64,000 nt of DNA from Escherichia coli (lineage in GTDB: Bacteria; Pseudomonadota; Gammaproteobacteria; Enterobacterales; Enterobacteriaceae): NCBI RefSeq assembly GCF_041248615.1, contig NZ_CP158426.1. One strand, written 5' to 3'. Positions 6,371-17,074 of the stretch are shown here, one piece after another; the stretch's first letter is position 1, and each line of letters opens with the position of its first letter. The position numbers were made by a program, and so were the translations under genes. The notes beneath the pieces were generated by a model. It did no database searches and was not told the origin of the DNA. It was given only the letters and a program-made list of their open reading frames with translations.

Positions 6371-7105
6371 ATGTCCAAACTCGATCTAAACGCCCTGAAC
6401 GAACTGCCGAAGGTAGATCGCATTCTGGCGCTGGCAGAAACTAACGCCGAACTGGAAAAACTGGATGCTGAAGGCCGCGTTGCCTGGGCGCTGGATAATC
6501 TGCCCGGTGAATATGTACTTTCTTCCAGTTTCGGCATTCAGGCGGCGGTGAGCCTGCATCTGGTGAATCAGATTCACCCGGATATCCCGGTGATCCTCAC
6601 CGATACGGGTTATCTGTTCCCGGAAACCTACCGCTTTATTGACGAGTTAACGGACAAACTCAAGCTCAACCTGAAAGTGTACCGCGCTACCGAAAGCGCC
6701 GCCTGGCAGGAAGCGCGCTACGGCAAACTGTGGGAGCAGGGCGTTGAAGGCATTGAAAAGTACAATGACATCAACAAAGTCGAACCGATGAACCGGGCGC
6801 TGAAAGAACTGAATGCGCAAACCTGGTTTGCTGGCCTGCGCCGTGAACAATCCGGCAGCCGCGCCAATTTACCGGTGCTGGCAATTCAGCGTGGCGTATT
6901 TAAAGTGCTGCCGATTATCGACTGGGATAACCGAACTATTTATCAGTACCTGCAAAAACATGGCCTGAAATATCACCCATTATGGGATGAAGGATATTTA
7001 TCGGTCGGTGATACCCATACAACCCGTAAATGGGAACCCGGCATGGCGGAAGAAGAAACGCGTTTCTTTGGCTTAAAAAGAGAATGTGGGTTACACGAAG
7101 GGTAA
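6371..7105 (+). CDS. cysH: phosphoadenosine phosphosulfate (PAPS) reductase
   Basis: ORF 6218..7105 is 5'-over-extended; true start [15 protein letters not shown] at 6371 (244 aa), GAGG RBS upstream; C-terminal ECGLH motif. Confidence 0.9.
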
Positions 7106-7122
7106 ATATTGCCGGATAAATT

Positions 7123-7161
7123 AAACGCCTCTGTCAGAAATGATGGGGGCGTTTTTATTTT
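7123..7161 (+). terminator. putative rho-independent terminator of cysJIH
   Basis: 7-bp stem AAACGCC/GGCGTTT followed by TTTTTATTTT, 18 nt after the cysH stop. Confidence 0.4.
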
Positions 7162-7369
7162 GCGAGCAGCATTCCTGATTTTAAACGTGAACGCCGCTGG
7201 AAGAATTATCAGGTATAGAATGGCGTTGGGTGCTTGAGGCTGTCTGGCGTTAAGCATTCGCGAGGTTCCAGATGGACAAAAGCCCCAGGCGATATTTCTA
7301 TCAACCTGAGGCCAGCGTTCGAACCTAAGCAATTCGAATGTTAGTCTCTTCTTTGCAGGGAGGCAAGAC

Positions 7370-7522
7370 ATGCTGACAAAATATGCCCTTGTGGCAATCA
7401 TCGTACTGTGTTGTACAGTACTGGGATTCACGCTGATGGTAGGCGACTCGTTGTGTGAGTTGAGTATCAGAGAACGTGGTATGGAGTTTAAGGCAGTTCT
7501 CGCTTACGAATCGAAGAAGTAG
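7370..7522 (+). CDS. hokX: Hok/Gef-family small membrane toxin (type I toxin-antitoxin)
   Basis: 50-aa [53 protein letters not shown]: hydrophobic helix plus conserved C-terminal Cys/Glu pattern typical of Hok; GGAGG RBS; below the 60-aa cutoff of the ORF track. Confidence 0.7.
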
Positions 7523-7528
7523 CCACCA

Positions 7529-7548
7529 CGCGGGGGTAAAACCCCGCG
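7529..7548 (+). terminator. GC stem-loop at 3' end of the hokX transcript
   Basis: Perfect 7-bp stem CGCGGGG/CCCCGCG with 6-nt loop immediately after the hokX stop; no strong T-run, so it may be an mRNA-stability element rather than a terminator. Confidence 0.35.
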
Positions 7549-7555
7549 TATTGAA

Positions 7556-7716
7556 TTGTGATGGTTTGGTCTCCTGCACCCTTTTTTAATTTATATTGTT
7601 TATGTGAATATTATGCCTATGTTTATTATTTATATATATTACTGATGAAAATTATTTGATTATTCATAATGTAAATATTTTATTGAACGATATATATCAC
7701 AGATAATTTTTAATAT
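7556..7716 (+). promoter_or_regulatory. strongly AT-rich cas3 upstream/promoter region (candidate H-NS-silenced region)
   Basis: About 160 bp of very AT-rich sequence directly upstream of the cas3 ATG; promoter elements not individually resolved. Confidence 0.35.
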
Positions 7717-10416
7717 ATGCGTAAATATCCTTTAAGTTTACTGAAGGATAAAAATATTGTGACTTTTTTTGATTTCTGGGGAAAAACCCGACGCGGCGAG
7801 AAAGACGGGGGCGACGACTATCACCTTCTTTGCTGGCATTCGCTGGATGTAGCCGCGATGGGCTATTTAATGGTTAAAAGCAATTGCTTCGGACTGGCTG
7901 ACTATTTTCGTCAATTAGAGATTTCTGACAAGGAACAGGCGGCTCAATTTTTCGCCTGGTTGTTGTGCTGGCACGATACTGGTAAATTTGCCCGCTCATT
8001 TCAGCAACTTTACCTGCACCCGAAACTCAGGGTTCCGGAAGGTGCTAGAAAAAATTACGAAAAAATCTCTCATTCAACGCTGGGCTACTGGTTGTGGCAT
8101 CATTATTTAAGTGAATGTCAGGAGTTACTTCCTTCCTCTTCACTCTCTCCCCGCAAACTTACACGTGTAATAGCGATGTGGATGCCCATAACTACCGGGC
8201 ATCATGGTCGCCCGCCTGACCGTATTGATGAACTGGATAATTTTCTGCCTGAAGACAAAGCTGCCGCGCGAGATTTTCTTCTTGAAATCAAACCACTGTT
8301 TCCGCTCATAGAGATCCCCGCATTCTGGGATGATGATGAGGGCATTGAACTTATAAAACACCTTTCCTGGTATATCTCTGCAACCGTCGTGCTCGCAGAC
8401 TGGACGGGTTCGTCAACGCGATTTTTTCCACGCGTCGCACACCCAATGGATATTAAAGGTTACTGGCAGAAAACTTTAGTTCAGGCTCAAAACGCCTTAA
8501 CCGTCTTTCCTCTAAAAGCAAAAGTCGCGCCTTTCACCGGAATTAATACGCTGTTTCCTTTTATTGAGAATCCGACACCGTTACAGCAAAAGGTGCTGGA
8601 TCTGGATATCAGCCAGCCAGGGCCACAGTTATTTATTCTGGAAGATGTGACTGGCGCAGGTAAAACGGAAGCGGCGCTTATCCTGGCGCACAGGTTGATG
8701 GCTGCGGGTAAAGCGCAGAGTTTGTTTTTTGGCCTGCCAACAATGGCAACGGCCAATGCCATGTACGATCGACTGGTCAAAACCTGGCTTGCTTTCTATT
8801 CGCCAGAGTCCCGCCCCAGCCTGGTGCTGGCACACAGTGCCCGAACATTAATGGACCGCTTTAATGAATCACTCTGGTCCGGTGATTTAGTCGGGTCAGA
8901 AGAACCGGATGAACAAACGTTCAGTCAGGGATGTGCGGCCTGGTTTGCCGACAGTAACAAGAAGGCGCTACTGGCTGAAATTGGCGTCGGCACGCTGGAT
9001 CAGGCGATGATGGCGGTGATGCCGTTCAAACATAATAATGTGCGGCTTCTGGGACTGAGTAACAAAATCCTGCTGGCTGATGAGATCCATGCCTGTGACG
9101 CTTACATGTCATGCATTCTTGAAGGGCTGATCGAGCGGCAGGCGCGTGGCGGAAACAGCGTCATTTTGCTTTCTGCCACGTTATCTCAACAGCAGTGCGA
9201 CAAACTCGTTGCTGCCTTTGCGCGTGGTACAGAGGGCCAGCAAGAAGCTCCGTTCCTGGAAAAGGATGATTACCCCTGGCTGACGCACGTTACGAAATCC
9301 GATGTGCATTCACACCGGGTAGCGACGCGCAAAGACGTTGAGCGTAGCGTGAGCGTGGGTTGGCTTCATAGCGAACAAGAATGTATTGCGCGTATCGAAT
9401 CGGCAGTAAGTCAGGGGAAATGCATCGCCTGGATCCGGAATTCTGTCGATGACGCTATTAAGGTTTATCGTCAGTTGCTTGCCCGCGGCGTCATTCCTGC
9501 TTCCAGCCTTTCTCTTTTTCATAGCCGCTTTGCTTTTAGCGATCGCCAGCGAATTGAAACGGAAACGCTGGCACGCTTCGGTAAAAGTTGTAGTTTACAG
9601 AGATCATCACAAGTCATTGTTTGTACACAAGTAATTGAACAAAGTGTGGATATTGACCTGGACGAAATGATCTCCGACCTGGCCCCTGTTGATTTGCTGA
9701 TCCAGCGAGCGGGGCGATTACAGCGGCATATCCGCGATATTAATGGTCAGTTAAAGCGTGACGGAAAAGACGAGCGTTCTCCTCCTGAATTGCTGATTCT
9801 GGCCCCCGTCTGGGACGACTCTCCGGGTGATGAATGGTTTGGCAGAGCCATGCGTAACAGTGCATATGTCTACCCCGATCATGGGCGAATCTGGCTGACG
9901 CAGCGTGTGCTGCGTCAGCAAGGCGCTATTCAGATGCCACACTCAGCCCGGCTTCTGATTGAATCAGTCTACGGTGAGGACGTGGTAATGGCGGAAGGGT
10001 TTGCCCGCAGCGAGCAGGAGCAAGTGGGCAAATATTACTGCGATCGCGCAATGGCTAAAAAGTTTGTCCTGAACTTCAAGCCTGGCTATGCCGCCAATAT
10101 CAACGATTACCTTCCGGAAAAGCTGTCGACACGTCTGGCGGAGGAGTCTGTTTCCCTGTGGCTGGCTACCTGTATTGCCAGTGTGGTGAAGCCTTATGCC
10201 AACGGTGCTCACGCATGGGAAATGAGCGTTGTCAGAGTGCGTCGAAGCTGGTGGAAAAAACATCGGGATGAGTTTTCTTTACTGGAAGGGGAAGCGTTCA
10301 GGCAGTGGTGCATTGAACAGCGGAAAGATCCGGAGATGGCAAACGTGATTTTAGTTACCGATGACGAAAGTTGCGGGTATTCGGCTATGGAAGGATTGAC
10401 TGGCAAGGTTGGTTGA
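7717..10416 (+). CDS. cas3: Cas3 HD-nuclease/helicase, type I-E
   Basis: 899 aa; HD region near N-terminus (LCWHDTGKF), helicase Walker A (TGAGKTEAAL) and DEIH box (LLADEIHACD); position between cysH and cse1; N-terminus unlike K-12 YgcB as I recall it. Confidence 0.9.
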   Translation: MRKYPLSLLKDKNIVTFFDFWGKTRRGEKDGGDDYHLLCWHSLDVAAMGYLMVKSNCFGLADYFRQLEISDKEQAAQFFAWLLCWHDTGKFARSFQQLYLHPKLRVPEGARKNYEKISHSTLGYWLWHHYLSECQELLPSSSLSPRKLTRVIAMWMPITTGHHGRPPDRIDELDNFLPEDKAAARDFLLEIKPLFPLIEIPAFWDDDEGIELIKHLSWYISATVVLADWTGSSTRFFPRVAHPMDIKGYWQKTLVQAQNALTVFPLKAKVAPFTGINTLFPFIENPTPLQQKVLDLDISQPGPQLFILEDVTGAGKTEAALILAHRLMAAGKAQSLFFGLPTMATANAMYDRLVKTWLAFYSPESRPSLVLAHSARTLMDRFNESLWSGDLVGSEEPDEQTFSQGCAAWFADSNKKALLAEIGVGTLDQAMMAVMPFKHNNVRLLGLSNKILLADEIHACDAYMSCILEGLIERQARGGNSVILLSATLSQQQCDKLVAAFARGTEGQQEAPFLEKDDYPWLTHVTKSDVHSHRVATRKDVERSVSVGWLHSEQECIARIESAVSQGKCIAWIRNSVDDAIKVYRQLLARGVIPASSLSLFHSRFAFSDRQRIETETLARFGKSCSLQRSSQVIVCTQVIEQSVDIDLDEMISDLAPVDLLIQRAGRLQRHIRDINGQLKRDGKDERSPPELLILAPVWDDSPGDEWFGRAMRNSAYVYPDHGRIWLTQRVLRQQGAIQMPHSARLLIESVYGEDVVMAEGFARSEQEQVGKYYCDRAMAKKFVLNFKPGYAANINDYLPEKLSTRLAEESVSLWLATCIASVVKPYANGAHAWEMSVVRVRRSWWKKHRDEFSLLEGEAFRQWCIEQRKDPEMANVILVTDDESCGYSAMEGLTGKVG

Positions 10417-16374: not shown

Positions 16375-17074
16375 GTGTTCCCCGCGTCAGCGGGGATAAA
16401 CCGGACTCAGTTTTTCCCTGCTGACCCTCCGAAGGGTGTTCCCCGCGTCAGCGGGGATAAACCGCCATGCCGCGCCAGCTCTGCGAAACAGCCCGCGTGT
16501 TCCCCGCGTCAGCGGGGATAAACCGATCCAAAGATAGTCGCCCCGATTGCCAAATTGGTGTTCCCCGCGTCAGCGGGGATAAACCGACGGTATTGTTCAG
16601 ATCCTGGCTTGCCAACAGGTGTTCCCCGCGTCAGCGGGGATAAACCGGCGGCACTAACGTGATAATCACGATCAATTATGTGTTCCCCGCGTCAGCGGGG
16701 ATAAACCGTGACGGTCCGAAAAAAGTTGGCTGAAGAAATTGTGTTCCCCGCGTCAGCGGGGATAAACCGGTTATTGCGTTTTCCTCACCTGCGGCGAGTC
16801 CGTGTTCCCCGCGTCAGCGGGGATAAACCGCATTCCGTGCAGCGGTCTGAATAATTGCCGCGGTGTTCCCCGCGTCAGCGGGGATAAATCGAGTAACGAC
16901 GAAAAAATACAGGCACGGGCCAGGTGTTCCCCGCGTCAGCGGGGATAAACCGATCCCCGCAGGTATCGCGCAGCTATCGATCGAGTGTTCCCCGCGTCAG
17001 CGGGGATAAACCGGACGCACTGGATGCGATGATGGACATCACTTGGAGTTCCCCGCCCCTGCGGTAGAACTCCC
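16375..17074 (+). CRISPR. type I-E CRISPR array: 12 repeats (29 nt), 11 spacers (all 32 nt), 61-nt period
   Basis: Repeat GTGTTCCCCGCGTCAGCGGGGATAAACCG starting at 16375, 16436, 16497, 16558, 16619, 16680, 16741, 16802, 16863, 16924, 16985; repeat 9 has C->T at 16889; degenerate terminal repeat GAGTTCCCCGCCCCTGCGGTAGAACTCCC at 17046-17074. Confidence 0.97.

Follow-up and report, generated by a model that had tools for sequence, protein, structure and literature searches.

The spacer between cysH and cas3 in the 64,000-nucleotide stretch of E. coli DNA analysed here (the window, to which all coordinates refer) very likely holds the chromosomal E. coli hokX/sokX type I toxin-antitoxin locus, in a form that is intact in this strain. 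An earlier note, made from the letters alone, had proposed a hokX-like toxin gene of the Hok family at this site, and this proposal is borne out by Pfam, by the Rfam hok-leader model, by RefSeq annotation and by the literature. Several complete genomes (e.g. NZ_CP080260.1) match bases 7100-7720 with 100% identity, and RefSeq annotates the loci that are 100% identical to that of the window as "Hok/Gef family protein" WP_000956458.1, located between cysH and cas3. The locus lies directly downstream of cysH and matches the annotated sokX region, and of 237 urological E. coli strains 90% have been found to carry a hok toxin gene together with sokX beside cysH, the remaining strains having sokX alone, like K-12 (PMC12736100). 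A hok gene at cysH-iap has likewise been recognised as a homologue of hokX, which had been identified earlier in E. coli B (PMC7232551). hokX/sokX is already described, named and catalogued and occurs in most E. coli; the copy in the window is intact but ordinary, and as a named module of most E. coli it matters little beyond correct annotation. What we add are the coordinates of SokX and of its promoter, the tac, ucb and fbi elements, the true 3' extent of the unit, a correction concerning K-12, the missing canonical mok start in Escherichia hokX and a common length polymorphism of the upstream ORF (uORF). The extent of 7200-7560 given earlier has the right location and is too short: the unit runs from the -10 at about 7214 through a T-run at 7582-7587, and since an fbi-like element (7568-7581) and this T-run were found, the locus reaches about 7588 and not 7560. 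The features of the spacer on the sense strand are as follows.

7105: end of cysH.
7123-7154: intrinsic terminator of cysH, called by a consensus promoter/terminator scan.
7214-7221, plus strand: putative hokX promoter -10 region TATAGAAT, with TAGAAT at 7216-7221; 6 nt separate it from the inferred +1 (7228).
7228-7588, plus strand: predicted full-length hokX mRNA of about 360 nt, comprising the leader, the hok CDS and a 3' UTR with fbi and the T-run.
7228-7241, plus strand: tac-like 5' element GGGUGCUUGAGGCU (GGGUGC..GAGGCU), which pairs with 7568-7581 in the full-length fold.
7246-7259, plus strand: ucb-like element, the alternative tac partner after 3' truncation, by analogy with R1.
7272-7328, plus strand: short upstream ORF with ATG at 7272, Shine-Dalgarno GAGG at 7262-7265, 18 codons and TAA at 7326-7328.
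7308-7348, plus strand: Sok-target hairpin from the Rfam structure alignment, with stem CGUUCGAA/UUCGAAUG and loop ACCUAAGCAA containing TAA.
7358-7363, plus strand: hok Shine-Dalgarno sequence GGGAGG, 6 nt before the ATG.
7370-7522, plus strand: hokX CDS, with ATG at 7370 and TAG at 7520-7522; 50 codons, 50 aa.
7528-7549, plus strand: GC-rich 3' stem-loop ACGCGGGG/CCCCGCGU, 8 bp with loop GUAAAA.
7568-7581, plus strand: fbi-like element GGUCUC-CU-GCACCC, followed directly by T6 at 7582-7587.
7717: start of cas3 (899 aa).

The toxin gene is a 50-codon ORF whose coordinates and Hok/Gef family assignment agree with those proposed from the letters, and ORF filters set at 60 aa miss it, as had also been remarked. 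Profile searches detected Hok-family similarity with both Pfam and Rfam: the peptide matches Pfam HOK_GEF (PF01848) over the entire profile (1-42 of 42) with 39.1 bits against a cut-off of 22 (E=5.7e-10). It misses curated NCBIfam cut-offs, scoring 53 versus 89 for NF007290 (the HokA equivalog) and 39.5 versus 73 for NF007279 (Hok family subfamily). HokA, the best NCBIfam match, was rejected as its identity, since the score is too low for that model and HokE, identical at 39 of 50 residues, is nearer. The ribosome binding site that had been judged good is indeed present (GGGAGG with a spacer of 6 nt), and this Shine-Dalgarno sequence is partly paired within a small hairpin in every fold computed. 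Compared with O157, E. whittamii and Escherichia sp. MOD1-EC7003, the hok CDS shows 0 non-synonymous and 3-5 synonymous differences, and compared with Atlantibacter, Klebsiella and Yokenella it shows a pN/pS of 0.17-0.27 at a pS of 0.37-0.56, so that pN/pS versus orthologues ranges from 0 to 0.27 overall; this pattern of divergence indicates that the Hok peptide is under purifying selection. An identical peptide is listed in Table S2 of a 2026 preprint (bioRxiv 10.1101/2025.08.07.668861) as construct 46_982/LRP171, placed under an arabinose promoter for a toxicity assay. The text of that source reports 42 of 45 constructs as toxic and names the three non-toxic exceptions as 19_179, 60_1482 and 69_1540, 46_982 not being among them. 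Given the synonymous-biased divergence and this toxicity record, the peptide is therefore probably toxic and selectively maintained.

The region upstream of the CDS is recognised as a hok mRNA leader. Rfam RF01794 matches 7228-7385 over the full model (1-157) with 111.7 bits against a threshold of 59 (E=2.6e-26), and no other Rfam family exceeds its threshold anywhere in the 64 kb. On K-12, RF01794 matched hokC and hokB on the strand of the hok/mok CDSs, with the annotated sokC and sokB on the opposite strand; the family named 'sok' therefore models the hok mRNA leader from its 5' end to the hok AUG. As a match called 'sok' marks the sense-strand leader of hok, a strand taken from it can easily be the wrong way round. 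We placed the hokX +1 at G7228 because of the start of the Rfam model and because of the comparison with R1, in which the -10/+1 geometry TATGAT-GTGCCC-GGCGCTTGAGG (L012 321-343) corresponds to TAGAAT-GGCGTT-GGGTGCTTGAGG in hokX. No clear -35 can be read from the sequence for this putative promoter. The string 'tcaggtata' (equal to 7209-7217) stands in the final column of a table row for the hokX locus in PMC5331693, and we read it as a predicted promoter motif. The consensus promoter/terminator scan of the locus called neither the hok nor the sok promoter, its sole output being the cysH terminator and a site within hok that resembles a promoter; both promoters were located by inspection of the letters and by their homology to those of R1 and K-12, and are only moderate matches to consensus. 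Low-level transcription, with low read counts, has been reported across the leader region in O157:H7 EDL933.

Folding of the predicted full-length mRNA (7228-7588) yielded a minimum free energy of -128.9 kcal/mol (z=-3.19; none of 100 shuffles folded as well), and in this fold 12 of the 14 tac positions are paired in the long-range tac/fbi helix. Among the 127,960 windows of 20 nt that the two strands of the 64 kb provide, fbi ranked as the seventh best distinct duplex site for the 14-nt tac, the best of all being the antisense of tac itself. In folds truncated at the 3' end (7228-7560 and 7228-7549), tac is predicted to switch to 7246-7259 with rearrangement of the leader, such that removal of 7561-7588 gives tac/ucb pairing, an R1-type conformational switch in silico. 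The GC-rich stem-loop that had been noticed behind the stop codon at 7529-7548 is present and measures 7528-7549. In an alignment of 14 sequences (orthologues and haplotypes), the four specified helices are 96.5% paired, versus 29-46% for slid controls, and for tac/fbi 96.4% of the cells are paired. Compensatory changes on both sides were seen at three pairs, of which two belong to the Sok-target hairpin and the third to the 3' hairpin, and four fbi-side changes preserve pairing; for tac/fbi the covariation is confined to one side, as the pattern used in the orthologue search kept tac constant. The 3' end of the hokX transcript is a guess, because the T-run is not preceded by a local terminator hairpin.

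The sok gene, which had been held not to be confidently placeable, can be located on the opposite strand, with a recognisable promoter and terminator.

7330 to 7272, minus strand: SokX, where K-12 sokX (b4701) maps with 57 of 59 bases identical.
7312 to 7282, minus strand: SokX terminator hairpin, with the U-tract UUUU at 7281 to 7278.
7338-7366, minus strand: putative sokX promoter, with -35 TTGCCT at 7366 to 7361, a 17-nt spacer and -10 TAACAT at 7343 to 7338.

The putative -10 lies 7 nt from the +1 (G7330) and the -35 overlaps the hok Shine-Dalgarno sequence. This promoter agrees with consensus at 8 of 12 positions, under the scan threshold of 9/12, and both hexamers are conserved in the orthologues. 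SokX folds with -23.8 kcal/mol (z=-2.37), and in K-12 SokX RNA has been detected by RNA-seq in all conditions. Judged by its sequence, the sokX gene of the window encodes a cis-antisense RNA, with its own promoter and terminator, that is complementary to the hok leader.

K-12 had been named as a strain with hokX/sokX at this position, which holds for sokX and the hok leader and fails for the hok CDS. The alignment with K-12 is near identity from cysH through the leader and ends at window position 7372, directly after the hok ATG; K-12 therefore has sokX and the leader, and no hokX CDS. The K-12 annotation has sokX (b4701) at 2887353-2887411, lying antisense to both cysH and cas3. Of the 5,426 complete E. 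coli genomes compared, 5,415 contain at least some of the hok mRNA region and 4,146 (76%) contain 80% or more of it. Truncated classes include the following.

K-12 type: matches only mRNA positions 1-145.
Strain C: IS421 inserted at about 7544, within the 3' stem-loop.
EC6622: IS1 at mRNA position +41.

hokX borders a variable CRISPR-Cas region, and the K-12-variant cas cassette starts right after the hok ATG; because this cassette junction lies at the hok ATG, presence or absence of hokX marks which cas cassette a strain carries. As a separate observation, a CRISPR array in the window was reported by a repeat search and not by Tandem Repeats Finder or by Rfam at gathering thresholds. Orthologues were sought by a DNA-pattern scan with the tac pattern in one genome per species. 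Orthologues adjoining cysH were found in E. whittamii, two other Escherichia species, Atlantibacter sp. RC6 and two assemblies labelled Pseudocitrobacter, and hokX-like loci were found in K. pneumoniae, Atlantibacter subterranea and Yokenella, with no cysH in the stretch fetched. Several of the 27 tac-pattern matches were set aside as not hokX: some are of hokC type, and in the matches from Pseudomonas, Photobacterium and a Bacillota MAG no hok ORF was detected.

The feature that sets the locus apart is the absence of any mok. The only upstream ORF that had been noticed (ATG 7272, 18 codons), which is also the only one preceded by a Shine-Dalgarno sequence, does end without overlapping hok, at 7328 and 42 nt before the hok ATG, and our search for a frame of the R1, mokB or mokC type that reaches the hok start found no credible one. 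In the model alignment the position of the mokB/mokC AUG corresponds to window 7319-7323, where hokX reads TCG/GAA; Escherichia hokX therefore has no canonical mok start. CGTTCGAAC stands at this position in every E. coli haplotype and every Escherichia orthologue, while the hokX-like locus of K. pneumoniae keeps CGAATGAAC and with it an in-frame 67-codon ORF. An in-frame, mokC-like N-terminal extension of hok was also sought: the frame is open back to 7310 and contains no ATG, GTG or TTG. A 12-codon ORF from ATG 7338 to TGA 7376 was rejected as a leader peptide since it is without a Shine-Dalgarno sequence, though it reaches the hok start; ATG 7338 owes its conservation to being complementary to the Sok -10 box.

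The frame that begins at ATG 7272 differs in length between E. coli lineages, as the following haplotypes illustrate (of the 5,426 complete E. coli genomes, those that matched a 103-nt probe with 99% identity or more were counted).

CAG..CCTAAGC, the haplotype of the window: the frame stops at TAA, codon 19; about 816 genomes.
TCG..CGT-AGC, the O157/B2 haplotype: the frame stops at TAG, codon 19; 1,017 genomes.
TTA..CCCAAAC, the commonest E. coli haplotype: the frame is open to TGA 7374-7376, overlapping the hok ATG; about 2,302 genomes.
CAG..CCCAAAC, the K-12 type: no codon-19 stop, the frame running into K-12-specific sequence; at least 847 genomes.

For the K-12-type CAG..CCCAAAC haplotype there was no hok annotation among the best matches listed. 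CCCAAAC stands in place of CCTAAGC or CGTAGC in about 42% of complete E. coli genomes. In every other Escherichia species sampled, codon 19 of this frame is a stop upstream of hok (TAA or TAG), so that the open form looks like a derived state that arose within E. coli. The T of TAA 7326-7328 belongs to the loop motif CUAA/CUAG of the Sok-target hairpin, which is conserved in the family. Taken with the stops in the other Escherichia species, this makes the stop look ancestral and driven by the RNA rather than a recent nonsense mutation. The suspicion that the module is degenerate is thus right in that a canonical mok is absent, but the TAA sits in a conserved loop motif and the peptide is selected and probably toxic; 'degenerate' is not the best reading, and what is unusual is the lack of any mok.

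In R1, mok must be translated at least to the hok Shine-Dalgarno sequence, and mutation of the mok start or stops upstream of hok abolish toxicity. This leads to the alternative that hokX is a translationally silent relic, intact in sequence, in which Hok is essentially never made because Escherichia hokX lost the mok start codon, so that only SokX and the leader RNA would be produced and no killing function would exist. TCG at the mokB/mokC start throughout Escherichia hokX, set against the in-frame ATG that K. pneumoniae keeps, accords with such a loss, as do the at least 847 K-12-type genomes that lost the CDS and kept sokX and the IS elements that strike the locus repeatedly. However, the peptide is under apparent purifying selection in the very lineages that are mok-less (0 non-synonymous versus 3-5 synonymous differences) and across the wider comparison with Atlantibacter, Klebsiella and Yokenella (pN/pS 0.17-0.27), the CDS is kept in 76% of genomes, and a strong Shine-Dalgarno sequence and a conserved tac/fbi lock would be pointless in an mRNA that cannot be translated. 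We therefore regard a silent relic as unlikely.

A second alternative takes the ATG-7272 ORF itself as a functional equivalent of mok, its length polymorphism setting the coupling to hok. A good Shine-Dalgarno sequence (GAGG, 6 nt) precedes this ORF, the ATG of which falls within the region complementary to SokX; moreover, in about 2,302 genomes it forms a 34-codon frame whose end overlaps the hok start as ATGCTGA, a textbook layout for coupling. Yet neither hokB and hokC nor the orthologues of Klebsiella, Atlantibacter and Yokenella have an ATG at the position of ATG 7272, this ATG is part of the 3' strand of a conserved 5' hairpin with a P(unpaired) of only 0.09 in the full-length fold, the frame stops before hok in the other sampled Escherichia species, such that the open form looks derived, and the T of its TAA is accounted for by the family loop motif. 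A mok function for this ORF is accordingly rather improbable. Nothing except the small size of the CDS speaks for a chance ORF in the spacer that plays no part in a toxin-antitoxin system, and this reading is already refuted by the Pfam (E=5.7e-10) and Rfam (E=2.6e-26) matches and by synonymous-biased conservation across genera.

For the preferred reading of an intact hokX/sokX locus, we propose a mechanism modelled on the R1 hok/sok paradigm. A weak constitutive promoter would give rise to a hok mRNA of about 360 nt (7228 to about 7588) that would be locked in an inactive form by pairing of tac (7228-7241) with fbi (7568-7581). Slow 3' trimming would then remove fbi, allowing tac to refold onto 7246-7259 and the leader to rearrange. 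The short, constitutive SokX (7330 to about 7272) would pair with the leader hairpin and the duplex would be destroyed, presumably by RNase III, whereas loss of SokX would permit translation of Hok and, as a consequence, damage to the inner membrane. Since no mok frame with a ribosome binding site reaches hok, Hok would have to be translated from its own strong Shine-Dalgarno sequence (GGGAGG, 6-nt spacer), and SokX would act via mRNA decay or structure and not by blocking mok. This mok-independent translation of Hok and its control by SokX is the weakest part of the model. It is conceivable, albeit on balance quite doubtful, that Escherichia hokX is a natural mok-less hok/sok system without leader-peptide coupling and that E. 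coli is in addition polymorphic for a derived allele that restores coupling. If so, the CCCAAAC allele would have fused the uORF to a stop over the hok ATG, and lineages would differ in how the toxin is switched on. The missing mok frame poses a small, testable question on the generality of the R1 regulatory model.

Comparison with known systems places the locus of the window among the characterised hok/sok modules. The K-12 sokX region occupies the same site and is identical through the leader to the hok ATG save for 2 of the 59 sokX bases, whereas the hok CDS and 3' UTR are present in the window only. Unlike strain C, EC6622 and E. coli B, the window has a locus without an interrupting IS element. 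The closest characterised paralogue is hokE/sokE of K-12, which resides at another chromosomal site and whose peptide shares 39 of 50 residues with that of hokX; in the preprint (bioRxiv 10.1101/2025.08.07.668861), HokE and the hokX peptide fall into the same 60%-identity cluster (46). The K-12 loci hokB/mokB/sokB and hokC/mokC/sokC score 109.7 and 118.3 bits with RF01794, compared to 111.7 bits for hokX, and have in common with it the 5' start GGGUGC(U/C)UGAG, the Sok-target loop (CCUAGCAA/CUGAAC) and a Sok annotated at the antisense position equivalent to that of SokX. In mokB and mokC the AUG lies 6-8 nt inside the Sok 5' end and reads into hok, whereas hokX has no such frame. Finally, hok/mok/sok (parB) of R1 is plasmid-borne and encodes a Hok of 52 aa, whereas hokX is chromosomal and encodes a divergent peptide of 50 aa; R1 has a 70-codon mok that overlaps hok and hokX has none, and the fbi of R1 comes with a separate terminator hairpin whereas that of hokX is followed directly by the T-run. 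Post-segregational killing is not expected for a chromosomal copy such as hokX. Beyond these differences, R1 and hokX share a Hok-family toxin, a weak promoter (putative in hokX) whose -10 and +1 are spaced alike, pairing of a 5' tac with a 3' fbi, tac/ucb pairing after 3' trimming (for hokX as a prediction), a Sok promoter placed over the hok Shine-Dalgarno sequence and a GC hairpin after the stop codon.

The hokX locus (coding sequence 7370-7522, plus strand) lies between cysH and cas3, and comparison of the window with other genomes shows two points of divergence within or just beyond it. Identity with K-12-type genomes ends at window 7372, directly after the hok ATG (as seen against K-12 itself), so the K-12-variant type I-E cas cassette has its junction inside hokX, and cas-less genomes with iap-adjacent sequence (ST131, NA3664) diverge from the window only past the T-run, at approximately 7587. 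The variable CRISPR-Cas region therefore has its cysH-side edge at hokX. Downstream of the cas operon, a CRISPR array at 16376-17014 holds at least 11 repeats of GTGTTCCCCGCGTCAGCGGGGATAAACCG with a period of 61; this array was reported neither by Tandem Repeats Finder nor by Rfam at gathering thresholds. The interval from the hokX T-run to the cas3 ATG (7590-7716) is extremely AT-rich (16-25% GC). As no local hairpin was seen upstream of the T-run, transcription of hokX may read through towards cas3.

The terminator hairpin at 7282-7312 is completely base-paired in the Sok (minus) strand, whereas the same hairpin in the hok sense strand carries a C-A mismatch at one position that is a G-U pair in Sok, a difference that fits selection on the structure of the antisense RNA. 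The adjacent segment, inside the SokX 5' tail and its target loop (7313-7334), occurs in four common E. coli leader haplotypes:

Common E. coli leader haplotypes at window 7313-7334
7313-7334, first haplotype: CAG..CCTAAGC
7313-7334, second haplotype: TCG..CGT-AGC..G
7313-7334, third haplotype: TTA..CCCAAAC
7313-7334, fourth haplotype: CAG..CCCAAAC

A 1-nt deletion in the O157/B2 haplotype joins the TTG(+7) frame to hok, giving a 95-codon ORF.

The Rfam family RF01794 ("sok antitoxin") matches the window at 7228-7385 and, at 602-754 of L010 and 767-918 of L011, the K-12 hokC/hokB loci, yet it covers the sense strand of hok, beginning at the 5' end of the mRNA and reaching the hok AUG, and the antisense Sok RNA is not what the model matches. 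Annotations derived from RF01794, such as "sok_15/sokX" in PMC5331693, have both the strand and the length of Sok wrong. A 152-codon minus-strand ORF (6973-7431) covers the 3' end of cysH, the spacer and the 5' part of hok; it overlaps real features of the opposite strand and is almost certainly spurious.

Beyond Escherichia, the hokX-like locus of K. pneumoniae ATCC 13883 (approximately 1474-1677 of L032) retains an in-frame ATG at the mokB/mokC start position, yielding a 67-codon mok-hok fusion frame, whereas Escherichia hokX has TCG at this position, which suggests that the Escherichia lineage has lost the mok start. Two assemblies labelled Pseudocitrobacter faecalis and P. vendiensis (L015 and L031) encode a cysH protein 97-98% identical to that of E. 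coli and also have a nearly identical hokX, a likeness surprisingly high for a separate genus, for which mislabelling, contamination or recent transfer are possible explanations.

Finally, IS elements have struck hokX independently in different strains. In strain C, IS421 lies within the hokX 3' hairpin (approximately window 7544) and severs fbi, the 3' element at 7568-7581, from the rest; in EC6622, IS1 resides at hokX mRNA position +41 (approximately window 7268); and strain JMK_KBN3987 has an IS1A copy. These insertions are reminiscent of the IS-inactivated hok loci that have been described in K-12 and E. coli B.
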